The position numbers and the translations under genes were made by a program. Positions 17,330-62,086 of a stretch of DNA of 64,000 nucleotides are shown here, piece by piece. The DNA comes from a virus. Taxonomy: Duplodnaviria > Caudoviricetes. The stretch lies in IMG/VR virus record IMGVR_UViG_3300032224_000903, positions 25,744-89,743 of that record; one strand, 5' to 3'. A model generated the notes under the pieces. The model ran no database searches and had not been told where the DNA came from. It worked only from the letters and a program-made list of their open reading frames with translations. Each line of letters begins with the position of its first letter. Within the stretch, counting starts at the first letter, position 1.

Positions 17330-17333
17330 TATT

Positions 17334-18080: not shown

Positions 18081-18083
18081 TTT

Positions 18084-18743: not shown

Positions 18744-18745
18744 TA

Positions 18746-19576: not shown

Positions 19577-19577
19577 T

Positions 19578-20659
<1,082 letters not shown>

Positions 20660-20663
<4 letters not shown>

Positions 20664-33154: not shown

Positions 33155-33937
33155 CTATTCACTCCAATGTTTATCTCTAAGTTCATATACATCAATTGGT
33201 TCACGTTTCATATGACTTCCCTGATTGTAAAATGCACCTTTTTTCAAGAATCCACCTAAAAAGTTTCTTCTCATTCTATTTGAGTTGTTAGCTTCCGACC
33301 CGTGTACACAATGTGAGTGTAATAAAACCACTTGTCCTTTTTTTAGAATTCCTTCTACCTTACGGAAATCGTGTCCCTCAGGCATAATACAAGGTTTACC
33401 TCTTTCATTTCTCCAAAATGATGGATTAGTTTTTGCTCTTTCCTCATCAACCTCAATTGGTAATGTTTGTAATCTATGTGAACCTTCGTAGTTCCACACG
33501 GAACCATTACCATTGTCGTGGTTATCCAATGCTAAGGCCGTATTAATAATTTCATTGTGTTTACAACCCGTGTAAAAGGCGTTTTGGTGCATATCTCTAC
33601 CTAATTGTCCTGGTGGTTTAAAATACGACCATGATTGCATTCCGTCGATTTCACCCTCCATAAGAAACTCACAAGCTTCAATAATTTTAGGATGAACATA
33701 TAGTTTTGCAAGTTTATCCGATAATTTATGTGGATATGCGAATGGATCCCATTCACCCCACTCCTTACCATCGTCTGTTAATGTTCCTTTTCTCTCCTGA
33801 CGTAAACGTTCAAGTTCATCATTGATTTCGTCACATTCTTCTTCTGTTAAGAGTTCTAATGTGGTAAATCCTCGGTATCTCCAATCAAATGTCATTTGTT
33901 GGATTTCCAATTCTGTAAGATGTTTAAAATTTCCCAT
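33155..33937 (-). CDS. Phytanoyl-CoA dioxygenase (PhyH)-family 2OG-Fe(II) oxygenase
   Basis: YFKPPG...MHQNAFY (Asn in place of the usual Asp), GSH, LLHSHCVHGSEANNSNRMRR. Confidence 0.82.
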   Translation of the reverse strand: MGNFKHLTELEIQQMTFDWRYRGFTTLELLTEEECDEINDELERLRQERKGTLTDDGKEWGEWDPFAYPHKLSDKLAKLYVHPKIIEACEFLMEGEIDGMQSWSYFKPPGQLGRDMHQNAFYTGCKHNEIINTALALDNHDNGNGSVWNYEGSHRLQTLPIEVDEERAKTNPSFWRNERGKPCIMPEGHDFRKVEGILKKGQVVLLHSHCVHGSEANNSNRMRRNFLGGFLKKGAFYNQGSHMKREPIDVYELRDKHWSE

Positions 33938-34049
33938 AATAATTTATTTAATACTATAATATAACATCATTTTATTATAAAACAAAATATTTGTCAAAAA
34001 ATAACTCATGAGTTTCATCAGTAGTCCAATTAGAAAGTATTTATAAACA

Positions 34050-34080
34050 GACAAAAAATAAACGTATCTCTCTCAAGATA
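34050..34080 (+). repeat. 31-bp imperfect direct repeat, left copy
   Basis: GACAAAAAATAAACGTATCTCTCTCAAGATA; 27/31 identical to 47485-47515. Confidence 0.75.
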
Positions 34081-34131: not shown

Positions 34132-34779
34132 ATGGAAAAATTAAGAACATTATCGGTTAACATTAAAGAAAAATTAGCACAGGTATTTTTATCCTTGTTT
34201 GCTTTATGGATCATATTCGCACTTTTGTTTGCGGTTTTTATGTCTTACTTGGAATTCTCTGGTAATACTGAAATGGCTCGTGACGTATCAAATTGGATTA
34301 TGTGGAGGATTGATGGTACGTTCAAGAACTCACCTGAAAATATATTGTACAAGGCTGAAGACCATATTTGGGTGGAGAGTGTTACCAATGAGGTTAAAAT
34401 GGGTAAATTGGCAGGCAACAGAAATTTAGCTTTTGGTGTAAAAAATACATTGGAAGAATTCTTACAGGAGAAGGGGTATGATTTGACACCGTCGGCTCCG
34501 TACAAATTAAAAGTTCAAATCGTTTATTTAGACGTTCTCACAACAAAAAAGAATATTTCGGTTTTTCACAAAAATGAAGAAGAAGTTGTCATTCGTATGA
34601 AAGGAATTTTATACAAGGATGGTAAGAAAGAAAAAGAACTTATGGTTGAAGAATCATCTTCAGAAATATCCATGTCAACATTAATTGTGGACGAAGGTGG
34701 TCAATTCAATCAAACATCATTAAGTAATGCTTTGAAAAAGTCTGCTGATAAATTAATAACCAAATTATTTGAAAAGTAA
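34132..34779 (+). CDS. Membrane-anchored periplasmic protein, possible CsgG/LptE-like alpha-beta fold
   Basis: N-terminal TM; GVKNTLEEFLQEKGY; C-terminal SLSNALKKSADKLITKLF helix. Confidence 0.5.
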   Translation: MEKLRTLSVNIKEKLAQVFLSLFALWIIFALLFAVFMSYLEFSGNTEMARDVSNWIMWRIDGTFKNSPENILYKAEDHIWVESVTNEVKMGKLAGNRNLAFGVKNTLEEFLQEKGYDLTPSAPYKLKVQIVYLDVLTTKKNISVFHKNEEEVVIRMKGILYKDGKKEKELMVEESSSEISMSTLIVDEGGQFNQTSLSNALKKSADKLITKLFEK

Positions 34780-34781
34780 CT

Positions 34782-36437
34782 ATGAAAAAATTATTAACTC
34801 TACTTGGAATACTAGTAATATCCATAGCCACAAATGCACAATTAACGGTCAATCAATTAGTAACTCCTACAACAGGGTTAAAGGTTGGTGATACAGTTTC
34901 GGTAAAATATACCGTTGCGAGAGGTACAACAACTCCTCGTTATTTTTGGTTAAGATACCAATATAACAATAAAGCACTTGCATATGTTTCAACAACGTTC
35001 TCACAAGGAACATCAGTTCAAACATTCTATACAAGTTGGTCATCTTATAAGTTTACCGCAAGTACCGCAAATAGTATTACTGCAACAAGTTTATATGATC
35101 AATATAAAGCAACACCTTGGGCGTATACCACTAACGCAGATTGGAATGTTGGGCAATTAACAGTTCAAAGAACAGATGCATCAATCAACGGAGATATTGC
35201 AACTCAAAAATATGTAATAAAAGATTTGGGTGATTATACAAACATACACAAATTAGATTTATCATATTCAATTGATGCAGCAGGAGCTAACATAGGACCA
35301 ATTACAACTGATCCAGGTACAATGTCTTTATCAAATGTAGTTGGTAATACATCTCAATTTAAAGTAAGAGTCTTATTCCCAACAGGTTATGATATTACAG
35401 CACATAGTGTGTCTTTAATACCATTAAAGACAACAGGTGAGATTGATTGGACGGCACAGGCAATTGCAACTAAAACATTAGACGCAAGTGGTGAGGCAAC
35501 ATTTACAACCGAAGCAAAAGTAGGTGACGAATTTGCTGTATTTGTAAATGCAGCGTTACAAAAAACATTTATGAATAATATCATTACAGTATCTGATGCG
35601 TACAAGGCTTTTTTAGGTATTACACAAGTAGACTTAACAGGAACACCAACATATTTTAACAGACCAACATTACAAAAGAATATTGGTTTGATTACAAAAG
35701 GTAAAACAACATTTAGTGAAAGTGACTCATATAATTTATTTGCAAATGTTATGGGAATTGATGTTTCATCAACTGCTATGATTCCATCAAATGCTGCACC
35801 TGTAAATGGTGTTGTGAATTTTAAATGGTATAACGGTTTATTAAATCAAAGTTGGTTAGATGGTGTACCTACTTACAAAACAAAAGTAACATCCTCAAAT
35901 CAAGCTGTAGATATGGTATTTGCTTGGGGTGGTGATTTGGATTGGTCACATTCATCCGATCCTGACGTGATTGCTGCAAGAGTTGCTGCTGGTACTTATG
36001 CTAATTCAGTAAAAGACGGTTCAACTATAAAATCATTTGCGGTAAGTTCAATGAGTTATACTCCAACAGTTGAAAAGGCAACATTAGGATTAAACTCTAC
36101 AATAGTTAATGGTAAAGTTGTATTAACAGGAACTTTAACAAAAGAAGGATTGGCGGGTTTAGAAGTAATATTACAATACGATAATACAAAATTAACATTT
36201 GATAACATTGCATTTGATGCGGGTCCAAGTGTAACTAACTTCTCAACAAACGGAGATGGTAGATTGACATTTGGTTCTATGGATCAAAATAAGACGGCAA
36301 GAATTAAAATAGGAACACCATATAAATTAACTTTCACACCAAAAGAAACCATTACAAATACCGCTGGTTTATTCTACACAGTTTTAGCCGATGCGGTTGA
36401 TGGAAGTGGAAACAAAATCAACTTAATAGTTGAATAA
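34782..36437 (+). CDS. Secreted protein with cohesin-like domains and dockerin-like motifs
   Basis: Signal peptide ATNA|Q; IITVSDAYKAF; AWGGDLDWSHS; C-terminal GLEVILQYDNTKLTF. Confidence 0.65.
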   Translation: MKKLLTLLGILVISIATNAQLTVNQLVTPTTGLKVGDTVSVKYTVARGTTTPRYFWLRYQYNNKALAYVSTTFSQGTSVQTFYTSWSSYKFTASTANSITATSLYDQYKATPWAYTTNADWNVGQLTVQRTDASINGDIATQKYVIKDLGDYTNIHKLDLSYSIDAAGANIGPITTDPGTMSLSNVVGNTSQFKVRVLFPTGYDITAHSVSLIPLKTTGEIDWTAQAIATKTLDASGEATFTTEAKVGDEFAVFVNAALQKTFMNNIITVSDAYKAFLGITQVDLTGTPTYFNRPTLQKNIGLITKGKTTFSESDSYNLFANVMGIDVSSTAMIPSNAAPVNGVVNFKWYNGLLNQSWLDGVPTYKTKVTSSNQAVDMVFAWGGDLDWSHSSDPDVIAARVAAGTYANSVKDGSTIKSFAVSSMSYTPTVEKATLGLNSTIVNGKVVLTGTLTKEGLAGLEVILQYDNTKLTFDNIAFDAGPSVTNFSTNGDGRLTFGSMDQNKTARIKIGTPYKLTFTPKETITNTAGLFYTVLADAVDGSGNKINLIVE

Positions 36438-38353
36438 TGAGGAAATTACTAACAATATTATTCTTATTCATATTTTCAATAACCTACTCCCAATCAGGTG
36501 TGGGTTATTTAAATTATACTGTTTATAACATTATAAGTAATGGGGCAGGAGCATATGCGTATAATTCAAATGATTTTGTTAATATGTTTGATGTTACAAA
36601 AGGAGCAAGTGTTCATACATCAGGTACGGCAGCAGTTAATTCTGCAATGTTAGATTTTAATGGTAGGTGGATAACAGGATTACCATATAACGGTTCATAT
36701 ACTGGTATTAAAATTACTGGATGGTTTGTTCCAAAAGAAACAGGAACATATCAATTTTTTATAAATGGTGATGATGCCGTTGATTTTTCATTAGATGGAA
36801 AAGTTGTAACATCTTTTTATGGTCCACATGGATTTGGTGCAAACGTAGTAGGTTCTGTTAGTTTAGTTGCTGGTAAATCATATACCTTTATGGCAAGATA
36901 CCAAAACTGGTCAGGTGGTTGGGGTATGGATTTAGAATGGAAAAGACCATCACAATATAATTGGGCTATTCAAGCGGATGAGTGTTATTCAACATCACCA
37001 TCAACACCAACTAAAAAAGCAATAACTAATTTTAACTTCAATACAAATATTACACCAACAACATTTTCAGTAGGTTCGGCATTGAGTTCGGCAGGTTCAA
37101 TTGATATAACAACATTATTAGATAGTAATAAAATAAATACAGGATATAAGGCAATAATTACACCAGGTCAAGTTGAATGGTCATATACAAATCCAAACGC
37201 AAATTGGTTAAATGGTAATAGTAGATTGTTGATTGATATGAGACAAGTTGGTGGTATAGACCCAACTAAAATTAATAGTGTAAAAATATTTGATGCATAT
37301 GAAGGTAATATGACATATACATCACATGATGCAAATGGTTGGGCAATATATACAGTACCATCACCACTAACAAAAATAACCGATGGAACATCTGCAAATA
37401 ATTCATCTATTAGAAATGTAAATGGTTGGAATACTGATTACGCATTTCAAAGTACCATATCACTTGCAGCAACTCAATCATATAAAACACAAACAATAAC
37501 CACATCAACCACAAATAACTTAACAACATTGTATAATAGTATTGTTACAGTATCTGATGTTTATTTGGCATTTAAAGAATTAGCAAATAATGGTTTATTT
37601 GGTAATCAAAATGGTAATGAGTTTGGATATGGTATTCAGTACAAAAACGCAGATGTAAATGATGATGGTACATTTAATGAGGCTGATTGTTTTGCATTAT
37701 TACAAAATTTAACAGGAGTAAAAACATTAGTGGATACATTCAACTTAAACAAAACAATGAGAATTATACCACAAACAAAATATGATAGTATTGGTAAATC
37801 TAATTGGACAACATTTACAACGCCATTAGGGAGTTCTTATTCATTTGATATTAACACAGGTAAATCAACCGACACATTAAATTTAGCGGTGGCTTGGAAA
37901 GGTGATGTTAACTTATCTCATTCAACAACACCGAAGTCAAACAATTTAACATCAATGTCGTTAAGATCAATGAGTATTAGTAATGAAATCAACGCATCTA
38001 TAATGACAGAAGTAATTGGAGATAGTGTTTATGCATATATTACATTAGACCCATTAGGACAAAATTTAATGGGTGCACAATTTCAATTAAAATACGATAA
38101 TTCAGTATTAAAATATAATAGAGTAAAATTTATAACAAAAGGTTCACCTACAAATTGGGGTGTAGATAATGATGGGTTTGTTGGTTTAGGTTCATTAATT
38201 ACGGGTAGTAGTTCATCATTGGATAATACAACTCAATATATTATATCGTTTACCGCAAATAAAAAATTGGATAACATATTTGGTTTAATTTCAATAGGGG
38301 CAACCGATGCGGTTAACCAAAGTGGAACATCATTAAAAGTAAGAGTAAACTAA
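36437..38353 (+). CDS. Secreted PA14-domain protein with dockerin-like EF-hand and C-terminal cohesin-like domain
   Basis: Signal peptide TYS|Q; PA14 ITGWFVPKETGTYQFFINGDDAV; ADVNDDGTFNEAD; GAQFQLKYDNSVLKY. Confidence 0.72.
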   Translation: MRKLLTILFLFIFSITYSQSGVGYLNYTVYNIISNGAGAYAYNSNDFVNMFDVTKGASVHTSGTAAVNSAMLDFNGRWITGLPYNGSYTGIKITGWFVPKETGTYQFFINGDDAVDFSLDGKVVTSFYGPHGFGANVVGSVSLVAGKSYTFMARYQNWSGGWGMDLEWKRPSQYNWAIQADECYSTSPSTPTKKAITNFNFNTNITPTTFSVGSALSSAGSIDITTLLDSNKINTGYKAIITPGQVEWSYTNPNANWLNGNSRLLIDMRQVGGIDPTKINSVKIFDAYEGNMTYTSHDANGWAIYTVPSPLTKITDGTSANNSSIRNVNGWNTDYAFQSTISLAATQSYKTQTITTSTTNNLTTLYNSIVTVSDVYLAFKELANNGLFGNQNGNEFGYGIQYKNADVNDDGTFNEADCFALLQNLTGVKTLVDTFNLNKTMRIIPQTKYDSIGKSNWTTFTTPLGSSYSFDINTGKSTDTLNLAVAWKGDVNLSHSTTPKSNNLTSMSLRSMSISNEINASIMTEVIGDSVYAYITLDPLGQNLMGAQFQLKYDNSVLKYNRVKFITKGSPTNWGVDNDGFVGLGSLITGSSSSLDNTTQYIISFTANKKLDNIFGLISIGATDAVNQSGTSLKVRVN

Positions 38354-38709
38354 TGAAACATATCAAAATTATATTATTGTGTTGTATCGTTTTTGTAATA
38401 TCATGTAAAAAGGTAGTTCCACCAGCACCCGTTGTGTCAATTAATAACAAAGAATTTTTTAGTGTGTCTGAAAACACAGTTAAAAACGGGGATATAATGA
38501 ACTTTACTTTAACCACAGTAGGAACATACACATTAACTATGATTGATACAGTTCAAAACCAAGTAGTATCAAGAGAACGATTTACGGGGAAAATTGGATT
38601 AAACTCACTCAAAATATATACAAATACTTTACCAACAAAATACCTAAATGTTGTATTAAAGGATCAAAATAATGTTCAAATAGGTAAAACCAAAATAATT
38701 ATAAATTAA
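38353..38709 (+). CDS. Lipoprotein with T9SS C-terminal-domain-like Ig fold
   Basis: Lipobox VIS|C; YTLTMID...GLNSLKIYTNTLPTKYLNVVL...TKIIIN. Confidence 0.55.
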   Translation: MKHIKIILLCCIVFVISCKKVVPPAPVVSINNKEFFSVSENTVKNGDIMNFTLTTVGTYTLTMIDTVQNQVVSRERFTGKIGLNSLKIYTNTLPTKYLNVVLKDQNNVQIGKTKIIIN

Positions 38710-38721
38710 ACAAGACAAAAA

Positions 38722-39087
38722 ATGAAAAAAGTATCTCTCGTACTCTTTGGATTAATCTTCTTGGTTGGATGTAGAAAAAATGACACTCCAATGCCACAGG
38801 TGATTAGTGACAACCTTAAAATCTCAAGTTCAGTGGGATTAAAATTAGAAACTCCATTTGTAACAAGTGAGGTTGCAATGAACATAAAAAGCGATGTAAA
38901 TCAAACTGTAACTGTTAAGATATTCGATATTTCTAATAGAGTAGTATCCAAATCTACAAGTGAAGTAAAGGTTGGTGATAACATTTTAAGAGTATATACA
39001 TCGGCTTTACCGTCTTCGGCATATAGAATTGCCTTATACGATAGTGCCGGCAATCTCTTAACCATCACGGACTTTAATAAAATTTAA
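38722..39087 (+). CDS. Lipoprotein with T9SS type-A sorting-domain-like region
   Basis: Lipobox LVG|C; VTVKIFDISNRVV...GDNILRVYTSALPSSAYRIAL. Confidence 0.6.
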   Translation: MKKVSLVLFGLIFLVGCRKNDTPMPQVISDNLKISSSVGLKLETPFVTSEVAMNIKSDVNQTVTVKIFDISNRVVSKSTSEVKVGDNILRVYTSALPSSAYRIALYDSAGNLLTITDFNKI

Positions 39088-39118
39088 GATAATTATATAA
39101 AGACAAAAACACAAAATT

Positions 39119-39436
39119 ATGGCAGAAGAACAAGAACAAGAATCAACAGGTAAATCCTTTAAAGGAATAATTATTACGTTAGTAAGTACAGTTACATTAG
39201 GTGTAGGTGGATTTATTACTAATAAATTAACAGGTGGTGGAGATGATAAGAAAGAAACTCCCGCGGCGACAACTCCTGTTATTAACATAAACAATACCCA
39301 ACAACAATCTCAGGCGGCGGGTGGTAAAACTGTAATCATCAAACAAGGAAGTGGAACGGCACAACCAGTACAACCAGTTGTTAAACCTAAGAAAAAAGAA
39401 GGTGACGAATTTAAAGAAGAGGCACCAAAATGGTAG
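39119..39436 (+). CDS. Single-TM protein
   Basis: IIITLVSTVTLGVGGFI followed by a Pro/Gln/Thr-rich tail. Confidence 0.7.
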   Translation: MAEEQEQESTGKSFKGIIITLVSTVTLGVGGFITNKLTGGGDDKKETPAATTPVININNTQQQSQAAGGKTVIIKQGSGTAQPVQPVVKPKKKEGDEFKEEAPKW

Positions 39437-39543
39437 TATCTGTGACAGGATATCAAATTGGAACTGTAATCTTTACAATCATAATAATTGGGATGGCAAT
39501 AAAGACGTCCTTTGATTTAACAAAAAAAAATAAAAATGGCTGA
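39430..39543 (+). CDS. Small TM peptide (37 aa)
   Basis: Read manually as MVVSVTGYQIGTVIFTIIIIGMAIKTSFDLTKKNKNG; overlaps both neighbours. Confidence 0.45.
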   Translation: MVVSVTGYQIGTVIFTIIIIGMAIKTSFDLTKKNKNG

Positions 39544-40111
39544 GGAACAAAAACCAAATACAGGATTTAGGGATTTATTAAATTCGGTAATGAAAAGAAG
39601 GTGGTATATTACCGCCATGGTATTGGGTGGTTTTATGGTAATAATCGCAGGTGTATTTGCTGCTATTATGGCAAAAACTCCCGCATCTGCGGAATGGAAA
39701 GAACTTTTATTATTGATGTTAGGTGCTTTTATCGGTAGTTATGGTAAAATCATAGATTATTGGTTCAGCGATCAAGATAAAGATAAGATGTTAGTCCAAA
39801 AGATGGATGAAGAAGATGGTGTAACTCTTTCTCACACAAATGACATGAAAGAAACTAATAAAGAACCCACACCAATTATTCCTGATGCATTTGTTCAAGG
39901 AGCCGCTGCCGCTAGTAAATTATCGGTAGTTGAGAATTTACAAAATTTTGAGTTGGAGAAAGACCAACAAGAACACGAACAAGAAATGGAAAAATTGGAA
40001 TTTGAACACCATGCTCACAGACAATGTGAACACGAATGGGGTGATTCTGACCATGACGGACACGAGGAGTGTCAAAAATGTGGACTATTACGTGAAGACG
40101 TAGAAGGATAA
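39536..40111 (+). CDS. Two-TM membrane protein with C-terminal His/Cys metal-binding motif
   Basis: Two TMs, IIDYWF motif, CEHEW...CQKC. Confidence 0.7.
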   Translation: MAEEQKPNTGFRDLLNSVMKRRWYITAMVLGGFMVIIAGVFAAIMAKTPASAEWKELLLLMLGAFIGSYGKIIDYWFSDQDKDKMLVQKMDEEDGVTLSHTNDMKETNKEPTPIIPDAFVQGAAAASKLSVVENLQNFELEKDQQEHEQEMEKLEFEHHAHRQCEHEWGDSDHDGHEECQKCGLLREDVEG

Positions 40112-40134
40112 ATAAAAGACAAAAATAAATTACT

Positions 40135-40383
40135 ATGAATTTTAAAGAATGGGTTATCGAACTTTTCAAAGATGAAAGAGGTTCAATCTCAATTAAACCA
40201 GTTGTGGCATTTGTAGGGGCTATGTTCCTATGTGTAACAATGATGTTAAATTCGTTCTCTCACGCGGATTTTGCCCCATCACCTGAATTGGTGAATGCGG
40301 TAATGTTAATCACGGGAATTGGAATGGGTGCTGATACTTTGGATAAATTCTCTCACAAAAAGAAAGACGAAACGGAAGGTTAA
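40135..40383 (+). CDS. Two-TM small membrane protein (holin-like)
   Basis: DERGSISIKPVVAF followed by two hydrophobic helices. Confidence 0.6.
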   Translation: MNFKEWVIELFKDERGSISIKPVVAFVGAMFLCVTMMLNSFSHADFAPSPELVNAVMLITGIGMGADTLDKFSHKKKDETEG

Positions 40384-40435
40384 ATGAAAGGGAGTTAAAA
40401 ACTTCCTTTTTTGTGTATTTATATTAAAGTAGTTT

Positions 40436-40702
40436 ATGGCGGGACAATCACAAAACGGGACAGACGTATTTTTTACTAAATTAAAAGAACAATCATTTAC
40501 CATCATTTTATTGGTGGGTATATTGTATTATCAAAACGTCAATTTTAACAATCAAATTAATGAATATAAAAAAATGGTTGATGAGAAGGAAACATTAGTT
40601 TTAAAATTAACCGACGATGAAAGAACGAGACTACTTGAAAGAACCAAATATCTTCAAGAACAAAGGGATAAGTATGTTGAAGAATTAATAAAAAATAAAT
40701 AA
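40436..40702 (+). CDS. Single-TM coiled-coil protein
   Basis: FTIILLVGILYY followed by a heptad region. Confidence 0.65.
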   Translation: MAGQSQNGTDVFFTKLKEQSFTIILLVGILYYQNVNFNNQINEYKKMVDEKETLVLKLTDDERTRLLERTKYLQEQRDKYVEELIKNK

Positions 40703-40708
40703 AATAAT

Positions 40709-41011
40709 ATGATAAAAGAACAAATTCCTACAGGGTGGCAAGGTGGCTTTCCATCTGAAAAACAAAAGAAAATGTTATATCCTACTACGGATTTAACTTC
40801 ATTACCTATGTTGGGTAATATGGATAATATCAATTTACTACAAAGACAATGGGGTGTTAAATGGCCAATGTTTAGTTGGAATACCCTAAATGGGGAAAAA
40901 GACCCAAAACGTTGTTATGTACAATTTGCTCCTTATATTTCAAGAATAGGATATACCAATGAAGGTAGAATTTATTCCATAATCTGTCCTCAACAAGGGA
41001 TGTGGATTTGA
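40709..41011 (+). CDS. N-terminal part of a probably single gene interrupted by an in-frame TGA
   Basis: Ends ICPQQGMWI-TGA; the frame continues DEICIN directly into 41030. Confidence 0.6.
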   Translation: MIKEQIPTGWQGGFPSEKQKKMLYPTTDLTSLPMLGNMDNINLLQRQWGVKWPMFSWNTLNGEKDPKRCYVQFAPYISRIGYTNEGRIYSIICPQQGMWI

Positions 41012-41029
41012 GATGAGATTTGTATCAAT

Positions 41030-41782
41030 GTGGAAGTAACAGTTACGGGACAAAGAGGATGGGTTAATGAAGACACAAAAGAAATTGCGGCAGATATGAT
41101 GGTAGAGGGAAAAATTTGGTTAACACCAGGTGAAAATCAAGGTGGTCTATTAAGAGCAATTTGGCCATTATTAAAGTACAGTTCTCGTAAATACCCTATT
41201 GACAAAGAGAATGCTATTCGTGTTGGAACATATCTACCAGGAAATCCTAAACAACCTATATTTCAACTTGGAAAGGGTTTATCTCCAAGATTTAAAAATC
41301 CACAATTTGCTGTACAGGAAGAAGCATTTACAACAGGACATATCAATGTAGAAATAGGAGGAATAATTCCTACAAACGATGACAAACTAGATAAGTTTAA
41401 TCAATACTTTTTAGACATCTTTAACTTAGGAACGGGTAATATGTTACAAAAGGGTAATGTATTATCTTGGAATTTATTTTTTGATTCACCTGAATTGGTT
41501 TCAATTCCTGAATGGCAAAATCACGCTGACTATTGGCGTACTTCTATAGGTGCTCATCACGGTTCACCAGGTGGTGAGGGAACAAGTCCAAGATATTTTG
41601 ATGGAACATATTTTGACACTAAAAATTTCGCCATTAAAGAGGTTATTAAGGAAATTTTAAATCACGTCGTAAAAAACTCCACATTGAGGAAGGGTTTAAT
41701 ATTACTTGTAGAATATTGTCCTAAAACAATATTTGATATATTTTTAAAGAAGGGTGACCAATCTAAAACAAAAACAATATGA
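41030..41782 (+). CDS. C-terminal part of the same interrupted gene (hypothetical protein)
   Basis: Same frame as 40709, separated only by TGA plus 6 sense codons. Confidence 0.6.
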   Translation: MEVTVTGQRGWVNEDTKEIAADMMVEGKIWLTPGENQGGLLRAIWPLLKYSSRKYPIDKENAIRVGTYLPGNPKQPIFQLGKGLSPRFKNPQFAVQEEAFTTGHINVEIGGIIPTNDDKLDKFNQYFLDIFNLGTGNMLQKGNVLSWNLFFDSPELVSIPEWQNHADYWRTSIGAHHGSPGGEGTSPRYFDGTYFDTKNFAIKEVIKEILNHVVKNSTLRKGLILLVEYCPKTIFDIFLKKGDQSKTKTI

Positions 41783-42522
41783 CAAAAAACGAAATACTAT
41801 ATAATGTTGGTTTAACTGACAAAGTATACTCAGAACAAAAAGACATTGATTTTAAAGCACAAAGGTTAAAATTAATTAAATGGATTGACGATAAAAAATC
41901 AGATACACAAGGATTTGTTGCAACAAAAGATAATACAATTTATATTGTATGGAGAGGAAGTTCTTCTAAAAAAGATTTCCAAAACGACGCATCGGTTGAT
42001 AAAGTTCCTTTTGTTGAAAAAGGTGAAAAAGTCCATATTGGATTTAAAACTTGTTGGGATGCTGTTAAGGATGAAACATATAAAGCATTAGATATTGCAC
42101 TTAAAAACTTGGGTCAAGAACATTCAATTGATAATATTGTTGTTTGTGGTCATAGTTTAGGTGCTGCCATTTCTACGTTATGTGCTTATGAGATTTATTC
42201 AATTTATAAATCAAATAAAATTATATGTTGTACCATTGGTAGTCCAAGAGTTGGTAATAAAGTATTCAAACAAAACTTTGATAAATCACCGATTGAATCA
42301 TTAAGGATTGTTCATAATTTAGATGTCGTTACTCGTGCCCCATCAATTGGGTATGCACATGTTAATACCGAATTACGTATTGATGATGAGGGTAAAATCA
42401 AAAAATGGATGATTGATTGGCAAAGAGTTGGTGAGTATATTAAAGCAGTATTTACAGGTAAGACGGCTAAAGACCATATGACAAATAACTATATAAGTGC
42501 TTTGAATAAATGGAACCCTTAA
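41779..42522 (+). CDS. Lipase class 3 (alpha/beta hydrolase)
   Basis: IVWRGS, VHIGF, VCGHSLGAA nucleophile elbow, GSPRVGN, DVVTRAP, DH. Confidence 0.92.
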   Translation: MTKNEILYNVGLTDKVYSEQKDIDFKAQRLKLIKWIDDKKSDTQGFVATKDNTIYIVWRGSSSKKDFQNDASVDKVPFVEKGEKVHIGFKTCWDAVKDETYKALDIALKNLGQEHSIDNIVVCGHSLGAAISTLCAYEIYSIYKSNKIICCTIGSPRVGNKVFKQNFDKSPIESLRIVHNLDVVTRAPSIGYAHVNTELRIDDEGKIKKWMIDWQRVGEYIKAVFTGKTAKDHMTNNYISALNKWNP

Positions 42523-42531
42523 AAAAAATAT

Positions 42532-43251
42532 ATGAAAAAATTATTTATATTATTAAGCGTTTGTTTAGTAGGTCTTGTTGCAAATAGTCAAACAATTGGT
42601 AAAACTAAGACAGAGTCTTATCAAGCGGACTTTGAAAAGAAAAGAGACATAAGTGCTTACATGGACTACGATGGTCCTCAAATACCTATTCAAATCCTTA
42701 AATGTGGTATATCTGATGAAATGTATGAGATGTATCCCGAACTTAAAGAAAAAAGAGTAGGTTTAGGGGTTGCGAATATTTCAATGGAATACCTTGAAAA
42801 CCTAAACAGATTTAAATTTACTGAGGATAAGACAGAAATTAAGAATAGAATGGTAAAACAATTCCAAGCATCTGCTGCAGGTATTTCTGAGAACAAATTA
42901 GACGGACGTGGTAAAATTAATTTAGCGAAGTATTTCGTCACTATTGAGTGTTATGACTACTCGGTGTCAGAAGATGAAACCATCAACCTAAAAGACGGTA
43001 TTAAAGACAATATGGTAACTCGTATCGGTCTTCAAGTTAGATTTACAGACGCTGAGACAGGTGTCTTGTTTGGTGGGTCAGGTTTAGGTGAGGCAACTAC
43101 AAAAAGAGAATTAACTTTTTTATCTGACGCAACAATTGACCCTATTAAGTTCAATCAATCAACAATTAGTATTGCGACGAAAAAAGCTTTAGATATTGCA
43201 TGTGCTAATATCCTTGATAGAATGATTAAGAAAGGAATATTCACCAAATAA
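42532..43251 (+). CDS. CsgG/HfaB-like secreted protein
   Basis: Signal peptide ANS|Q; NRFKFTEDK, AKYFVTIECYDYS, LQVRFTDAETG, IATKKALDIA. Confidence 0.65.
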   Translation: MKKLFILLSVCLVGLVANSQTIGKTKTESYQADFEKKRDISAYMDYDGPQIPIQILKCGISDEMYEMYPELKEKRVGLGVANISMEYLENLNRFKFTEDKTEIKNRMVKQFQASAAGISENKLDGRGKINLAKYFVTIECYDYSVSEDETINLKDGIKDNMVTRIGLQVRFTDAETGVLFGGSGLGEATTKRELTFLSDATIDPIKFNQSTISIATKKALDIACANILDRMIKKGIFTK

Positions 43252-43274
43252 TACAATAATAATAAGATTTATTT

Positions 43275-43302
43275 AAAAGGAGGTATTATAACCTCCTTTT
43301 TT
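43275..43302 (+). terminator. Intrinsic terminator
   Basis: AAAAGGAGGT-ATTATA-ACCTCCTTTTTT. Confidence 0.75.
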
Positions 43303-43316
43303 AATATTTATAAGGT

Positions 43317-44219
43317 ATGAAACTAATTGAAACAATAAATGACTTTATTGGAGACTTTTTACACGAATGTACCGTTGCGGCCGTTAGACTTGGGGATGGT
43401 ACAGTTTTAGCTAAAAATAGAGATAGAGGGTATAAAGCTAAAATGAATGTGATTCACGAAATTGTTGATGATGTTGAGATAGTTTATTGGCATGATACTG
43501 AAACCGATTGGTCTGAAGGTATGAATGAATATGGTATTGGTATAGTCAATTCAAGTTTAATGGTTAGACAAGACGAAAAAGAAAGTGATAAAGTGGCTAA
43601 GTCAAAAAAAGTTAAAACATCACATGACGGTGAAAAAATGAGACGTGCTTTAAAATTCAAAACATTAAAAGAAGTAATTAAATCGGTGATATCTTATGAA
43701 GGAAGTGATAAAAAAGAAGTTGGTATAAAAGGAGAAACAATTGTTGCAAGTAATAAAAATATCTATATTGTAGAATTAACAAGTAAGGATACACCGGTAG
43801 TGACTAAAGTAGAAAAAGATGAAAAGGTAACAGTTAGAACAAATCACGGAATAGCACATAAAGTTGCGGGTTATACTCATGGTATTAAAAAGAAATCTTC
43901 TCATATGAGAATGCATTATGCTAAAGAACATTTAAAAGATGTTACAACTGACCAAGAAGTTATTGATAGAATGAAAGAACAATATAATAAAAATAAGTTC
44001 TTTAACCCATACAGACGTAAAAACATGTATAACATGCAAACAGTCGGTCAAATAATGATGAACTTAGATAAAAAAGAAGTTACCGTTAGAATGGATAATA
44101 AAATGGGAAAATTTGAAGGAATAATAAATAAACTACCAAAAGATTATACACCAAAAATAAAAATAAAAATCGAGAGTGAAAGAACTCACGATGACAAAAA
44201 AAATAAATTACCTACATAA
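43317..44219 (+). CDS. N-terminal-nucleophile (Ntn) cysteine hydrolase (C45/C59-like)
   Basis: CT at residues 18-19, LAKNRD, EGMNEYGIGI, VRTNH. Confidence 0.72.
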   Translation: MKLIETINDFIGDFLHECTVAAVRLGDGTVLAKNRDRGYKAKMNVIHEIVDDVEIVYWHDTETDWSEGMNEYGIGIVNSSLMVRQDEKESDKVAKSKKVKTSHDGEKMRRALKFKTLKEVIKSVISYEGSDKKEVGIKGETIVASNKNIYIVELTSKDTPVVTKVEKDEKVTVRTNHGIAHKVAGYTHGIKKKSSHMRMHYAKEHLKDVTTDQEVIDRMKEQYNKNKFFNPYRRKNMYNMQTVGQIMMNLDKKEVTVRMDNKMGKFEGIINKLPKDYTPKIKIKIESERTHDDKKNKLPT

Positions 44220-45046
44220 TGAAAACTCTCTCATTTGTATTGTTACTAATCCCAACCTTAATGTTTGGTCAAGTCTCTTCTTGGAGACAAACTGGTGGAA
44301 GTGTTCCATCATCATCACAATCAACTCAACCAAGAATACAACCATCTGTACCACAACAACAAAACAATGTGAGTCAATGGAGAACACAAACTGCGCCGAT
44401 AAGACCTGGTGACAACTTTAACGGACAACCTTTAACAAGAACTTATAAATCTACAACTTATAATCCTTATGGTTTACAATACGGAGTATGGGGATGGTAT
44501 CAACCATATCCTTATATTTGGTATGACAATTACGGATGGAGACAAAGAAGTGTGATTCGTATCTATGAAAACGGAAGAAGAGATACGGTTGCGTCAACAC
44601 CTGTATTATTTTCGGCTGGTGTAGGACATACAAATAACAAACAAATGTCCTATTGGGGGTTGATTGGTGGGAATAAATCATATTTTATTATAGATTATGT
44701 AATGACTTACGCAATAGATCAAAATAGTTATTTTCCATATGGTCAAATTAACAATGTTGATTTCCCATTAAGTAAAAACGATTGGAAAAAAGAATCAACT
44801 TTTTATGTTGGTGGTGGTAAAAGAATTGGTAAAATAGGAATACACGGTATGATAGGATTCGGTAATGAAGTTATTAGATGGCAAGGTAAAGATGCTATTG
44901 GTGGTATATCGTTTCCAAAATCAAATTCATCATTTACAACATTTAAAGTTGGTATTATAAGAGATTTCAAATTTGTTACATTAAAATTAGACACCGACCC
45001 AATAAGAGGATACACACAAATAGCGATAGGATTAAATAATAAATAA
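44219..45046 (+). CDS. Secreted protein with a probable C-terminal outer-membrane beta-barrel
   Basis: Signal peptide MFG|Q; low-complexity Q/P/W/Y N-region; alternating beta strands ending QIAIGLNNK. Confidence 0.55.
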   Translation: MKTLSFVLLLIPTLMFGQVSSWRQTGGSVPSSSQSTQPRIQPSVPQQQNNVSQWRTQTAPIRPGDNFNGQPLTRTYKSTTYNPYGLQYGVWGWYQPYPYIWYDNYGWRQRSVIRIYENGRRDTVASTPVLFSAGVGHTNNKQMSYWGLIGGNKSYFIIDYVMTYAIDQNSYFPYGQINNVDFPLSKNDWKKESTFYVGGGKRIGKIGIHGMIGFGNEVIRWQGKDAIGGISFPKSNSSFTTFKVGIIRDFKFVTLKLDTDPIRGYTQIAIGLNNK

Positions 45047-45780
45047 TGAATATAGATTTTGATTATAAAATATTTGATTTAAAAAATTATTTATCTAAGG
45101 ATGATTTTATAGATTTAGAAAATAAAGTAAACAATTTTGATGTAGATTTAAGTAAAATTAAAAGTACATTGGGGTTTTTATCTTGGTCGGAAAAGGTGCA
45201 AAATAAATTAAAAGAAAAATATAACGATAGATTTAATAATATAATAAAAAATGATTATATAACCTACGAAGATTTTAAAATTCTAAATGATTTAAATAAT
45301 GAAGAAGGATATTACGATGAAGACTATTTTAATTTTTTTTTAACATATGGTAATAGTATATTTAAAGATGTCGGCATATATGAACATATAAGAAATGTTT
45401 ATAAGGGTATTTTAACAGAGTTGTTTAATAAAAAAGTTAAAAAAAATTTTGAAGATACACTTATTGGAAATATAAACATATATCCTAAGGGTTCATTCAT
45501 TAGAAAACATCAAGATAATGATCCTGATGGACAAAGACTATTCACTATTTTATTTTTTTTAAATTCAGATAGAACTTTAGAACAAGGATCATTATTAAAA
45601 TTATATACTAAAGATAGTTTGGTGAACTTTATACCAAATTTTAATAAATGTGTATTAATTGAACACCAAAATTTTAATTATACACATGAAGTTACCCATA
45701 ATTTAGTTGATGATGTTAGGTATTCAATTTATTCCCCATTTACAATAAAAGATTATAAAGAAAAATTAGAAGACGTATAA
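45046..45780 (+). CDS. 2OG-Fe(II) oxygenase, prolyl-4-hydroxylase/EGLN-like (2OG-FeII_Oxy_3)
   Basis: INIYPKGSFIRKHQD, FTILFFLN, PNFNKCVL, HEVT, RYSI. Confidence 0.8.
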   Translation: MNIDFDYKIFDLKNYLSKDDFIDLENKVNNFDVDLSKIKSTLGFLSWSEKVQNKLKEKYNDRFNNIIKNDYITYEDFKILNDLNNEEGYYDEDYFNFFLTYGNSIFKDVGIYEHIRNVYKGILTELFNKKVKKNFEDTLIGNINIYPKGSFIRKHQDNDPDGQRLFTILFFLNSDRTLEQGSLLKLYTKDSLVNFIPNFNKCVLIEHQNFNYTHEVTHNLVDDVRYSIYSPFTIKDYKEKLEDV

Positions 45781-45784
45781 ATTA

Positions 45785-47452
45785 ATGAAAAAATATATTA
45801 TCTCTCTCCTAATATTATTTTTTTGTAGTAAGTCATTTAGTCAAAGTACTATAACACAAACTTACATAGATCCATGTGACAATAAAGTTTACGTGGTTAC
45901 AATTCCATTTGGTCAAAATCAAACAGTTGCGGTTATTAGAGGTAAATCTAAAATAGTTACGTTAGCAGATATGAATAGTGGGGCATTTCAAGTATGGGTA
46001 AACTCGATATTTGCAACACCTTGTCCACAAAACGATGCCATTAGATTAGCACAAGAAGCCGCTGCGAAGGCTGCCGCAGATGCCGCCGCAAAGGCCGCTG
46101 CTGATGCTGCCGCAAAGGCTGCCGCAGATGCCGCTGCGAAGGCGGCTTCGGATGCCGCTGCGAAAGCCGCAGCAAACGCCGCAAGTGGTGCTGCAAGTGG
46201 AGCAGCTTCAAATGCAGCAAGTAGTGCCGCATCAAATGCGGCAAGTTCTGCCGCAAGTGGTGCAGCATCTAATGCTGCAAGTTCTGCTGCAAGTGGTGCC
46301 GCATCATCATCGGCAAGTTCTGCGGCAAGTGGTAGTGCAAGTTCAGCTGCGGCAAGTGCAGCTGCACCTCCTCCTCCTCCACCTCCACCAGCAAGTGCTC
46401 CACCACCTGCAAGTAGTGGATCATCATCTCCACCTCCGGCAAGTGGTGGTTCTTCACAAAGTGGGGGTAGTTCTTCGTCATCCTCAAGTAGTAGTTCATC
46501 GTCAGATAAACCCGCAGAAACAAAACCAGCCGATAAACCGGCAGAAAGTAAATCAGATAAACCTGCGGAACAAAAACAGGAAGAAAAAAAGACAGAATCT
46601 AAAACTGAAGAAAAGAAAGAAGAAAGTAAAACAGAAGAAAAAAAATCAGAAGAAAAGAAAACTGAAGAAAAGAAAGAAGAAAAAAAATCTGAAGAAAAAA
46701 AGGAAGAGAAAAAAGACGAAAAGAAAGATGAGGAGAAAAAGAAAGAGGAAGAAAAGAAAAAGAAAGAGGAAGATAAAAAGAAAAAAGCGGAAGTTACAAA
46801 TCCATTATTATTAGCGTCAGATATTACCGTGGCGGAAGCAACACCGGGATCATATTTGGCATCAATATCGTTAGGTGTTAGTAAATCATCATTAATGGGT
46901 GATGAAAGTTATAGTGGAGGATTGGTGGTTAATAGTAATTTAAGTTCTATAGTAACAACGGGAGGATATACTAAAATGGGTATGAATTCAGATGGTAGTT
47001 TAAATGCAATACATTCATATGGAACGGCATTTGCTTATCTTGCGGGAAATTACATGAATTTGTTAGGATACACTTGGATTAAACCGACACCAAAAAGAGG
47101 TACAATTGGTTATAATGTGGGTGTGATTAATTTATTCCTTAAAAATGATAATGGTGGATTTGATTATAATATGGCATCATCGGCAATTGCATTTTGGACC
47201 AAACCTTATGTCTATTCAAAGAAACTAACAATATCACCACAAGTATTTACGATGTTCTCACCATTGTCTTGGAATAGTGTTACAGGAGTATCTACTGTAA
47301 ACAGACATATGGGATTTTTAGTTGGTAGTTCGTTTGATTATAAATTAAGTAAAAGATTTGGACTTAGTTTTAATTATAAATTGAGTGGAAACACTAAACC
47401 TAATTCAGATTTTTTAAGTAACTTCTTGATTGGTAGTAGAATGGTATTATAA
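45785..47452 (+). CDS. Secreted protein with Ala-, poly-Pro-, Ser- and Glu/Lys-rich linker and a C-terminal barrel-like domain
   Basis: Signal peptide SFS|Q; (AAAKAAAD)n; PPPPPPP; EEKK repeats; amphipathic beta strands at the C-terminus. Confidence 0.7.
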   Translation: MKKYIISLLILFFCSKSFSQSTITQTYIDPCDNKVYVVTIPFGQNQTVAVIRGKSKIVTLADMNSGAFQVWVNSIFATPCPQNDAIRLAQEAAAKAAADAAAKAAADAAAKAAADAAAKAASDAAAKAAANAASGAASGAASNAASSAASNAASSAASGAASNAASSAASGAASSSASSAASGSASSAAASAAAPPPPPPPPASAPPPASSGSSSPPPASGGSSQSGGSSSSSSSSSSSSDKPAETKPADKPAESKSDKPAEQKQEEKKTESKTEEKKEESKTEEKKSEEKKTEEKKEEKKSEEKKEEKKDEKKDEEKKKEEEKKKKEEDKKKKAEVTNPLLLASDITVAEATPGSYLASISLGVSKSSLMGDESYSGGLVVNSNLSSIVTTGGYTKMGMNSDGSLNAIHSYGTAFAYLAGNYMNLLGYTWIKPTPKRGTIGYNVGVINLFLKNDNGGFDYNMASSAIAFWTKPYVYSKKLTISPQVFTMFSPLSWNSVTGVSTVNRHMGFLVGSSFDYKLSKRFGLSFNYKLSGNTKPNSDFLSNFLIGSRMVL

Positions 47453-47484
47453 AAAAATCCTCGAAGTAGAAACTCCGAGGATAT

Positions 47485-47515
47485 GACAAAAAATAAATGT
47501 ACCTCTCTCCTGATA
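47485..47515 (+). repeat. 31-bp imperfect direct repeat, right copy
   Basis: GACAAAAAATAAATGTACCTCTCTCCTGATA. Confidence 0.75.
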
Positions 47516-47944: not shown

Positions 47945-48439
47945 TTATTCATTATCCATACTTCGATCCCACTTTGCTTTACGAGCTTCAGGGGATAACA
48001 TGTGGATTTCATCAATGGTGTGGTTTATTTGGACTCTAACACAAGTTTGAGGTAATTTACAATTCATTAAGTAATTATTAATATAACCCATCATATTTGC
48101 TGCACCAATAGGGTTTGCCGAGTGGACATATATTTGAGGTAGAGGTATTTTTTCGTTCATACTCTCACTAACCAAATATCTACAACAATCCATTCCCGTT
48201 CTTTCTTCTATGTTGTTGTAATCCAACATATAATTATTTTTTACATTTGTATAGTATTCTACCATAGCACCTTCACCTAAATCATGATCTAAGGATATGA
48301 CTTCAAAATTACCTAAACCATTTAATTTTAATTGTGCAACAAATTCGTCATAATTTCTCACAACAATCCAATCATCATCCACAGGACTTCTTATATCGTC
48401 AAGGTATAATCTCAATCTATTATTAATTTTCACTTTCAA
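47945..48439 (-). CDS. Cyclic-phosphate-processing receiver-like domain protein
   Basis: LYLDDIRSP, ISLDHDLG, TGMDC, VHSANPIGA. Confidence 0.75.
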   Translation of the reverse strand: MKVKINNRLRLYLDDIRSPVDDDWIVVRNYDEFVAQLKLNGLGNFEVISLDHDLGEGAMVEYYTNVKNNYMLDYNNIEERTGMDCCRYLVSESMNEKIPLPQIYVHSANPIGAANMMGYINNYLMNCKLPQTCVRVQINHTIDEIHMLSPEARKAKWDRSMDNE

Positions 48440-49241
48440 TATGTTTTAATATATAATCCGAAATTTTTTTATGACCTTCCACACATGGATGTAAATCTTT
48501 ATATGTATATTCATAGTCTCCGTTGAAAACTTTAGCAACGTCCCCAACATTCAATTTGTTTGTGTTTATAAAATCCATCATACTGTTAAATTCTCCAAAT
48601 TTAACCATATTATCTTTTAATAATTCATCAATTTTTTTTGTTAATAAAATATTATCTCTATTAACTGACCAAGGTATTATTATAAATTTTATTTCAGGAT
48701 TCATTTCTTTTAAAATTTTAAATCTATTAAAACTCTCTTCCCAAAATACATTCTCATCTAATTTACTTAACCATTCTAATGCAACTGAAGATACTTCAAA
48801 GTCATTTTTAGGATCACTAACAAATTTAACAATTTCGTCTATGGTCGATGGAAATCTATTATCATTGTTTATACCGTGTATGTTTTTATCCCACCACCTA
48901 ATAAACCCAACTTCTAAAAAAATATATTTTACATTTTTCATTAGATCGGCAAATTTTTCCACATCTCTATTCAAATACCATAAAGTATCCATTGCATTAC
49001 CACCTATTTGATACTCATGTTTGTCGTGAATATTAAATTCAGTTAAACCTAATTTTTCCGATACTATTTTTGAATATCTATATTTTCTCCAATAACTTTT
49101 ATCTTCCTCATCTCTTGGTAAGGGTTGTTTAAGTCCATTTTCTTTTAACCATTCATGATCATTATATTTTGGTCTCATTTCCAATTCCAAACCTAATCCC
49201 ATGGTTATTGAACCTCCGGCAAATATTGCAATATTTCTCAT
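48423..49241 (-). CDS. SGNH/GDSL-like protein
   Basis: IFAGGSITMG...GGN...DLHPCVEGH. Confidence 0.5.
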   Translation of the reverse strand: MRNIAIFAGGSITMGLGLELEMRPKYNDHEWLKENGLKQPLPRDEEDKSYWRKYRYSKIVSEKLGLTEFNIHDKHEYQIGGNAMDTLWYLNRDVEKFADLMKNVKYIFLEVGFIRWWDKNIHGINNDNRFPSTIDEIVKFVSDPKNDFEVSSVALEWLSKLDENVFWEESFNRFKILKEMNPEIKFIIIPWSVNRDNILLTKKIDELLKDNMVKFGEFNSMMDFINTNKLNVGDVAKVFNGDYEYTYKDLHPCVEGHKKISDYILKHIESEN

Positions 49242-62032: not shown

Positions 62033-62086
62033 CGTTTAGTTTATCATTAATTTAGTTTATATTATAAAGAAAAGTATTTATATAGA

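Follow-up and report, generated by a model that had tools for sequence, protein, structure and literature searches.

Introduction

Among the phage proteins that act on the host envelope, Lom and Bor of lambda and Llp of T5 are outer-membrane barrel or lipoprotein morons that alter the host surface or block receptors. The pelagimyophages carry, in a variable region, a CsgG/CsgF cluster whose purpose is unknown (Zaragoza-Solas et al., 2020; PMC7029224). The 76-kb 'Cryophage' of Bacteroidota encodes type IX secretion system (T9SS) cargo, including a PA14 protein, which varies among near-identical genomes and for which roles in exclusion or strain competition have been proposed (Bellas et al., 2020; PMC7468147). 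Here we analyse a block of genes at positions 34132-47452 of a 64,000-nucleotide stretch of tailed-phage DNA (Caudoviricetes; IMG/VR record IMGVR_UViG_3300032224_000903, positions 25,744 to 89,743), hereafter the window, which encodes lectin-cohesin proteins alongside CsgG-like, putative barrel, lipoprotein, and membrane-anchored partners.

With a probability of roughly 0.55, we read this block as an accessory module, conserved among large Flavobacteriia phages, that serves to remodel the host envelope or to display lectins, and that is not virion structure. The module is real, conserved, and widespread, and the domain-level claims made for it in an initial annotation of this DNA are mostly confirmed. 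It is a combination of known kinds, namely phage envelope-modifying genes, cohesin-based assemblies, and CsgG-family proteins, and is not categorically new. That annotation held that no phage system of this composition had been described. In the literature on phage-encoded cohesins and dockerins and on CsgG in jumbo phages we found no description of the module, and the titles and abstracts of papers naming the cultured Flavobacterium phage immuto, which carries it, give no sign that it was studied. Its parts nevertheless have published precedents (PMC7029224; PMC7468147), and GenBank labels the immuto proteins, at the domain level only, as cohesin-domain and C-type-lectin-domain proteins.

Comparison with described systems

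The likeness to cellulosomes centres on g03, the third protein of the block. Its C-terminal domain superposes on cellulosomal and non-cellulosomal cohesins (Clostridium thermocellum CipA, 1aoh; C. acetobutylicum CohA2, 6kgf; C. perfringens GH84C, 2jh2) with Z 13.4-14.4 and a root-mean-square deviation (rmsd) of 2.1-2.4 Å over ~120-125 residues, it contains a D-x-N-x-D-G-x-F-x-x-x-D loop followed by a helix, and its relatives exhibit a hierarchy of anchor, adaptor, and cargo. Unlike a cellulosome, the module is phage-encoded and belongs to a Gram-negative Bacteroidota host, its cargo consists of lectins rather than enzymes, and the canonical dockerin-type repeat occurs once in g03 and not at all in g02.

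Like the curli channel and the pelagimyophage CsgG, the module features a protein of CsgG fold, g13, which is phage-borne and has relatives in PF03783. In contrast to both, CsgE, CsgF, and curlin (CsgA) families were not found in the 17 proteins of the block (Pfam, E up to 0.1), g13 has no lipobox and is paired with a short CsgG-like protein and a putative barrel, and the hosts are Bacteroidota rather than SAR11. Cryophage resembles the window phage in infecting Bacteroidota and in encoding exported proteins, PA14 among them, that vary between near-identical genomes; its cargo, however, is T9SS-tagged, and partners of the cohesin, dockerin-like, CsgG-like, or barrel kinds were not reported there. 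Lom, Bor, and Llp are single genes with neither lectin nor cohesin, whereas the module in the window amounts to ~11 genes.

A conserved module of exported proteins

The block consists of 17 open reading frames (ORFs) of at least 80 residues, named g01-g17 and all on the + strand (Table 1). The co-orientation reported initially thus stands, but the count of ~19 genes does not, and g10 and g11 are one split gene. The order g01-g08, g13, g15, g17 is syntenic in 21 IMG/VR contigs (related loci are cited below by L-number), with g01 and g02 present in all 21, and g09-g12, g14, and g16 recur in one locus or none. A check of gene neighbourhoods, suggested at the outset, accordingly finds the core co-conserved both in these contigs and across distinct phage genera.

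The core products are built for the Sec pathway of a Bacteroidota host: they bear signal peptides exposing Gln at +1, lipoboxes, or membrane anchors. Signal peptides of the signal peptidase I (SPI) type, with predicted cleavage before Gln, are found in g02, g03, g13, g15, and g17, and the g02 and g13 families keep this Gln without exception, although the residues around it vary. Lipoboxes are present in g04 and g05, their Cys nearly invariant within the families, and g01, g06, g07, and g08 have a single hydrophobic anchor segment each. With five such signal peptides, two lipoboxes, and four anchors, the early impression that most of these genes are envelope-targeted is well founded. Gln at +1 is the 'Q-rule' specific to Bacteroidota (PMC5837995), and signal peptides of this kind were earlier observed in Porphyromonas phages (PMC10367356).

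The same module is found in immuto (vB_FspM_immuto_2-6A, NC_055915; host Flavobacterium sp. LMO8) as gp013-gp019. There, a protein consisting of signal peptide, C-type lectin, and dockerin-like segment (Lectin_C 3e-15) is followed by one consisting of signal peptide, cohesin-like domain, and dockerin-like segment. At its C-terminus the cohesin protein gp015 (cohesin 5.9e-9) carries a genuine T9SS type A sorting domain (2.4e-8; 34.6 bits vs a cut-off of 27). The set is completed by a transmembrane (TM) protein resembling g06, a CsgG-like protein, a barrel of the g17 type with its low-complexity linker, and a short CsgG-like counterpart of g01. These consecutive genes are embedded in a replication region, with ribonucleotide reductase, nucleases, and QueC as neighbours. 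Because its sorting domain is bona fide, the immuto cohesin would be placed at the cell surface. In immuto, lectin, adaptor, and cohesin are on separate chains with a T9SS tag, whereas the window phage joins lectin, dockerin-like segment, and cohesin in one chain that lacks a sorting C-terminal domain (CTD). Also unlike immuto, the window phage has a CTD-like domain only as stand-alone lipoproteins, and its g01 is TM-anchored. Just 5′ of the immuto module, gp012 (L024 5205-5783), a NUC1-type nuclease, has a signal peptide with Gln at +1 and may be co-exported.

Further arrangements occur in L027, a 254-kb contig in which a single chain comprises cohesin, dockerin, cohesin, and a CTD above threshold, and in L026, where cohesin, dockerin, and cohesin occur without CTD. 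Across phage genera, these parts thus co-travel and are shuffled like cellulosome modules.

The lectin-cohesin proteins g02 and g03

Both large proteins had been credited with cohesin-like and dockerin-like modules. The cohesin stands, by fold in g03 and by paralogy in g02; the dockerin stands as a motif but not as a fold, the model falling below 50 in predicted local distance difference test (pLDDT) score. An AlphaFold2 (AF2) model of g03 built from 24 sequences has confident domains at residues 22-190, 225-355, and 515-638. Residues 513-638 superpose on cohesin 6kgf_C (Z 14.4, rmsd 2.1 Å, 125 residues) and on 1aoh (Z 13.4, rmsd 2.2 Å, 121 residues), and Foldseek matches the domain to 2jh2 at E 2.7e-6; as modelled, the g03 C-terminus is a type-I cohesin fold. 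By Pfam Cohesin (PF00963), g03 scores E 0.002 and 18.7 bits (cut-off 24.1), its L011 homologue 23.2 bits, and immuto gp015 36.7 bits, over the cut-off. The paralogues g02 and g03 are 24-26% identical across the C-terminal half, and g02 matches gp015 (phmmer 2.5e-4); a g02 profile searched against the PDB returned chance antibody matches only.

The PA14 domain proposed for one of the two is securely located in g03, with a Pfam E-value of 1.7e-9 (38 bits vs a cut-off of 24) and a fold superposing on 6x7j with Z 15.7 and rmsd 3.3 Å over 161 residues (VIA on the AF2 model). It contains D112-D113, a candidate for the Asp-Asp (DcisD) motif of calcium-dependent sugar binding, and DD is kept in all PA14-type homologues. 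In L012, g13 is 98% identical to that of the window phage, yet the lectin head is non-homologous to the PA14 of g03; in L009 and L012 (g13 92-98% identical), a C-type lectin plus LCCL replaces PA14 and the signal peptide is retained. The lectin head of g03-type proteins is thus swappable. Many PA14 proteins from uncultured phages are present in BFVD, the top match being a 636-residue phage protein whose annotation includes a T9SS sorting domain.

Between head and cohesin, the motifs TVSD.Y.AF, DVNDDG..F.E.D, and AW.GD...SHS are conserved in the g02 and g03 families, the pair itself sharing TVSD.Y.AF, F.E.D..L, and AW.GD...SHS; the last of these, singled out in the initial annotation as common to both proteins, is indeed conserved in the g02 family and the g03 family alike. 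Of the repeats in g03, one is a canonical loop-helix, D406-V-N-D-D-G-T-F-N-E-A-D417, and the other (TVSDVY) is degenerate. Two tandem ~22-residue calcium-binding F-hand repeats, as in type I dockerins (PF00404), were found in neither g03 nor g02. In immuto gp013, the TVSD.Y motif forms the end of a loop that is canonical, D-V-N-N-D-S-R-F-T-V-S-D, which makes it plausible that the g02 and g03 segment descends from dockerin-type repeats. As a domain assignment, dockerin remains weak and at the level of motifs.

The CsgG-like and barrel proteins

A CsgG-like protein and a possible second one had been noted, and both are upheld. g13 itself has no match in Pfam, and its family profile retrieves nothing from PDB sequences, a wider profile giving chance matches only. 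An exhaustive search recovered divergent full-length relatives, mostly lipobox-bearing (the bacterial ones with G-C lipoboxes), of which 19/32 match Pfam CsgG (PF03783; best 1.9e-17) and 6/32 LpoB. The AF2 model of g13 (pLDDT 83) matches CsgG by Foldseek at 1e-7 and superposes by VIA on 4uv2_P (Z 12.9, rmsd 3.0 Å, 171 residues) and 4uv3_C (Z 12.2, 194 residues), compared with Z 8-10.5 for the next families, Cj1090c, PelC, and LptE; the language-model Atlas likewise indicates CsgG. By modelled fold and transitive homology, g13 is a CsgG-family protein, distinct from a curli system. It is 52% identical to immuto gp017, and its family numbers 6387 clusters in metagenomes.

The C-terminal domain of g01 aligns with the g13 family (hhalign 98.3%, E 2.4e-14) and, as judged from this alignment, is a second, shorter CsgG-like domain. 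g01 also matches Pfam Lipoprotein_16 (YajG-type) near threshold (3.6e-5) and is homologous to immuto gp019 (4e-8).

The barrel-like character attributed to g17 agrees with an Atlas model, in which the C-terminal domain resembles DUF2490-type barrels (TM-score 0.70-0.73) and is predicted to be an outer-membrane barrel; by features, the nearest are Bacteroidota 'transporter' clusters (0.96). The g17 architecture is repeated in immuto gp018 and, by family alignment, in L023, L011, and L027 proteins, with a phmmer match to L023 of 0.002. In L011, g03 and g04 are separated by two additional genes (6122-7375), encoding a Cys-rich 116-residue protein and a 297-residue signal-peptide protein that ends in ..NFQF and can be aligned, over its C-terminal part, with the barrel family of g17. 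For g15, hhalign reveals no relation to that barrel family, Pfam gives no match, and a word-index search returned close unannotated relatives only.

These proteins have relatives outside phages. In Fibrobacter, Chitinispirillaceae, and Chitinivibrionales metagenome-assembled genomes (MAGs), a g13-like lipoprotein is followed by a barrel ending in ..RFAF and then a second CsgG-like lipoprotein, and in an Ignavibacteriales MAG two CsgG-like genes adjoin (L030 3521-5911, L032 6881-9275, L035 6887-9457, L029 7001-8304; homologous to g13, the g17 type, and g01). This triad of Fibrobacteres-Chlorobi-Bacteroidetes (FCB)-group bacteria is probably the source of the phage outer-membrane set. To our knowledge, no function has been assigned to it. 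The module contigs L025, L028, and L027 are binned in MAGs labelled Thiobacillus, Micavibrio, and 'uncultured Bacteroidetes', and are probably mis-binned phage DNA.

The small lipoproteins had been described as T9SS-CTD-like. Their lipoboxes are evident, but the CTD match is sub-threshold in g05 (Por_Secre_tail E 0.0091, 16.7 bits vs 27; TIGR04183 E 0.0029, 17.6 vs 23) and absent in g04, so that neither of these stand-alone ~120-residue proteins has a recognizable T9SS type A sorting domain (PF18962/TIGR04183). Weak CTD matches recur in 10/22 members of the g05 family, and g05 is also sub-threshold to DUF3244. We class g04 and g05 as CTD-like rather than as CTDs.

Interpretation and alternatives

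The core products of the block divide into two sets. The adhesin-like g02 and g03 are modular, joining a swappable glycan-binding head, a dockerin-like segment, and a type-I cohesin, and g13, the putative barrel protein g17, and g01 form an outer-membrane set probably drawn from the bacterial three-gene unit, accompanied by the lipoproteins g04 and g05 and the inner-membrane g06-g08. We infer that the cohesin and dockerin-like parts may link one lectin protein to another, or fix it to an anchor, and so build up at the envelope a hierarchy like that of a cellulosome. The head-to-tail polymerisation envisaged in the initial annotation is conjectural. Among relatives, the role of anchor would fall to the cohesin with the T9SS sorting domain; here, because g02 and g03 have no T9SS tag, passage or anchorage may come from the CsgG-like/barrel set or from the CTD-like lipoproteins, and it is likewise an inference that the CsgG-like protein is linked to export of the lectin proteins. 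Infected cells would thereby acquire a glycan-binding coat, which would most plausibly mask or occupy surface glycans and so lead to superinfection exclusion or shield progeny from re-adsorption; alternatively, it could make infected cells stick to neighbours or particles.

Several observations weigh against this reading. Both g02 and g03 end in a cohesin without a T9SS sorting domain, which makes surface exposure its weakest link in the window phage, where the two proteins could remain periplasmic. In the dockerin-like region, the calcium-loop ligands are lost in both repeats of g02, the Pfam dockerin match of g03 is E 0.034 (14.8 bits, cut-off 22.9), a family profile of the region reaches 3ul4_B in the PDB at E 0.62 amid chance matches, and AF2 pLDDT drops to 30-48 over g03 356-514. 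The phage copies of g13 have an invariant Q20 and no Cys in place of the lipobox typical of CsgG. E. coli CsgG needs its lipid anchor. With this anchor missing and the tip of the long hairpin 134-173 charged in the model, pore formation by g13 is uncertain, and the curli partners are absent, as noted above. Synteny inside one phage clade partly mirrors common descent. Finally, the octamer TATTTATA that heads the block also precedes the terminase and portal genes, which would fit late structural genes as well.

In a bolder form, the phage would carry a self-contained secretion and display machine, in which a CsgG-family ring, the barrel, and the second CsgG-like protein, taken over from the FCB-group three-gene unit, would serve as an outer-membrane translocon or anchor independent of the host T9SS and would display on the infected cell a cellulosome-like lattice of lectin-cohesin proteins; we regard this as doubtful.

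The missing sorting domain could instead point to exclusion at the periplasm or outer membrane with no surface display, in which the lectin-cohesins would bind envelope glycans or receptors and block the receptors or DNA entry of rival phages, in the manner of T4 Imm and Sp or T5 Llp. Sec signals without T9SS domains on g02 and g03, inner-membrane anchors with periplasmic parts on g01 and g06-g08, and lectin heads that differ between near-identical phages, as in an arms race, are all in keeping with it. We nevertheless judge it unlikely, given that the cohesin of relatives is on a bona fide T9SS cargo tag, hence surface-exported, and that heads of the PA14 and C-type lectin kinds characteristically belong to extracellular adhesins.

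A lysis or egress apparatus is distinctly unlikely. It would make g01, g06-g09, g13, g15, and g17, together with g04 and g05, an envelope-spanning, spanin- or disruptin-like complex breaching the outer membrane with the help of the lipase (g12) and the Ntn hydrolase (g14). Both membranes are indeed targeted, TATTTATA is common to late genes, g09 is laid out like an i-spanin, with a TM segment and a coiled coil, the block contains a lipase and an amidase-type hydrolase, and the immuto endolysin is ~8 kb downstream of its module. However, almost all relatives lack the lipase, the hydrolase, and g09, known lysis systems make no use of swappable lectins or cohesins, the outer-membrane triad is also encoded by ordinary bacteria, and searches of the block (Pfam, PHROGs) detected no family of endolysins or holins.

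If the block were an unlinked hotspot of exported morons, the cohesin-lectin and CsgG-like/barrel genes would be functionally separate. The locus does accept unrelated inserts (the lipase, hydrolase, and oxygenase here; the extra barrel and Cys-rich genes in L011), it probably has three transcription units, and no cohesin or lectin genes accompany the bacterial triad. That the lectin, cohesin, g06-, CsgG-, g17-, and g01-like genes co-travel to immuto, despite a terminase identity of 28% and differing genomic contexts, renders such independence improbable.

Last, g02 and g03 as virion fibre or decoration proteins with lectin tips, the others being assembly factors, would recall the swapping of receptor-binding proteins, the frequency of PA14 proteins in uncultured phages, and the TATTTATA shared with terminase and portal, but is very improbable in view of cleavable Q+1 signal peptides, lipoboxes, and outer-membrane barrels foreign to tailed-phage virion proteins, the lack of PHROG structural matches, the T9SS tags of relatives, and the position of the immuto module between ribonucleotide reductase/nucleases and QueC.

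Genomic context, regulatory signals, and inserts

The window is AT-rich (G+C ~30%), and its other genes include those for an RNA ligase, a Clp/Lon-like ATPase, and, at 60254-63931, a T4-type large terminase and a portal. The terminase is <30% identical to that of any cultured phage, its best matches being a Microcystis phage and immuto, and the nearest cultured relatives of the phage are Flavobacterium phages. Since related IMG/VR contigs reach 209-237 kb, the window phage is a jumbo phage; it comes from lake water and has a likely Flavobacteriia host. Against cultured phages, neither megablast of the block nor tblastn of g03 gave a match, and a PHROGs search returned nothing useful for the core genes. 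The flanking genes at 33155-33937 and 48423-49241 have no PDB relatives, hence no lysis enzyme was recognized nearby.

Farther upstream, positions 13712-20663 hold a glycan-synthesis cluster encoding an N-acetylglucosamine (GlcNAc)-transferase-like protein, two GT1/GT4-like proteins, GT25, GT11 (fucosyltransferase family), an FkbM methyltransferase, and UDP-galactopyranose mutase. Its glycan could be a ligand for the lectins of the module, or the cluster could modify host or virion glycans.

The block had been said to follow a late-type motif. The octamer TATTTATA is present at 34038 and before terminase and portal, 5-15 nt 5′ of their starts, but its lateness is not borne out, and its total of 20 in the window, vs 16.8 expected, is not above chance. 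What is striking about TATTTATA is placement rather than number: sites such as 21782, 22236, 24279, 40416, 43305, 56052, 60241, and 62075 lie a few to ~45 nt 5′ of many starts, in the same orientation. It is plausibly a phage promoter element. Terminator-like hairpins at 40386-40410, 43275-43300, and 47457-47482, together with TATTTATA before g01, g09, and g14, likely divide the block into three transcription units.

The direct repeat ACAAAAAATAAAYGTAYCTCTCTC flanks the whole module, as it does in the closest relative, L009 (1205-1223 and 14511-14529), and a copy is present in L012 (6230-6248). Possible readings are a shared element, either RNA or regulatory, and the trace of a cassette insertion.

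The lipase, Ntn hydrolase, and oxygenase named in the initial annotation are correctly identified, but are not members of the system: along with g09-g11 they are independent inserts, variable between loci, and g12, g14, and g16 have no export signal. g09 is a small protein with a TM segment and a coiled coil, and g12 is a class 3 lipase (Lipase_3 E 4.5e-27, Pfam). g10 and g11 form a single gene (40709-41782) broken by an in-frame TGA at 41009-41011; in L012 it is intact, at 357 residues, with GGA (Gly) at this codon. Recoding of TGA was rejected, as TGA ends 8/69 ORFs of the window, and a plain nonsense change or polymorphism is more likely.

Table 1. Positions of the genes and sequence signals of the block, numbered from the first nucleotide of the window; a slash marks predicted signal-peptide cleavage
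Feature	Position	Strand	Remarks
TATTTATA octamer, candidate phage promoter element heading unit 1	34038..34045	+	repeated 5-45 nt 5′ of g09, g14, terminase, portal
Left copy of 24-nt direct repeat ACAAAAAATAAAYGTAYCTCTCTC	34051..34074	+	leader 5′ of g01; two copies in window vs 0.00 expected
g01, N-terminal membrane anchor and short CsgG/LpoB/YajG-like domain (residues ~85-214)	34132..34779	+	
g02, signal peptide TNA/Q, beta-rich N-part, degenerate dockerin-like segment, AWGGD..SHS, C-terminal cohesin-like domain	34782..36437	+	
g03, signal peptide YS/Q, PA14 head 17-191, beta-sandwich 225-355, dockerin-like 363-428, AWKGD..SHS, type-I cohesin 513-638	36437..38353	+	
g04, small lipoprotein, beta-sandwich, g05 paralogue	38353..38709	+	21-31% identical to g05 family; aligns with immuto gp015 CTD
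g05, small lipoprotein, T9SS-CTD-like/DUF3244-like beta-sandwich	38722..39087	+	
g06, bitopic membrane protein, Pro/Gln-rich tail	39119..39436	+	hydrophobic 14-32; immuto gp016 homologue 2.8e-4; in 14 loci
g07, conserved membrane protein, acidic Cys/His-rich C-terminus	39536..40111	+	homologues in L026, L027
g08, small membrane protein, last in transcription unit 1	40135..40383	+	terminator-like hairpin 40386-40410 next
Variable insert g09-g12	40436..42522	+	absent in 20/21 related loci
g13, CsgG-family, SPI signal peptide NS/Q, without lipobox	42532..43251	+	
g14, C45-type N-terminal nucleophile (Ntn) hydrolase, variable insert with own TATTTATA	43317..44219	+	NCBIfam C45_proenzyme 7.1e-15, under cut-off; found in L001 only
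g15, signal peptide FG/Q, Gln/aromatic-rich segment, beta-rich C-part, candidate outer-membrane protein	44219..45046	+	in 8 loci
g16, 2-oxoglutarate (2OG)-Fe(II) oxygenase, variable insert	45046..45780	+	Pfam 7.8e-9; found in L009 only
g17, signal peptide FS/Q, two-Cys N-domain (YIDPC), ~260-residue low-complexity linker, predicted C-terminal outer-membrane beta-barrel	45785..47452	+	
Bidirectional terminator hairpin 47457-47482, then right repeat copy 47486-47509	47457..47509	.	

Implications

With more than 6000 metagenome clusters of its CsgG-like gene, the module is among the commoner unexplained gene sets, in freshwater and marine Flavobacteriia phages. If it serves for swappable lectin display, it would constitute a new means by which lytic phages manage superinfection, re-adsorption, or cell-cell contact, and it would be the first cohesin-based assembly known to be in use by a virus. 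It would also offer a functional handle on the bacterial CsgG-like/barrel/CsgG-like triad. Were the self-contained machine to prove real, a virus would control what its host adheres to or which phages reach it. The cultured pair of immuto and Flavobacterium sp. LMO8 makes the module testable.

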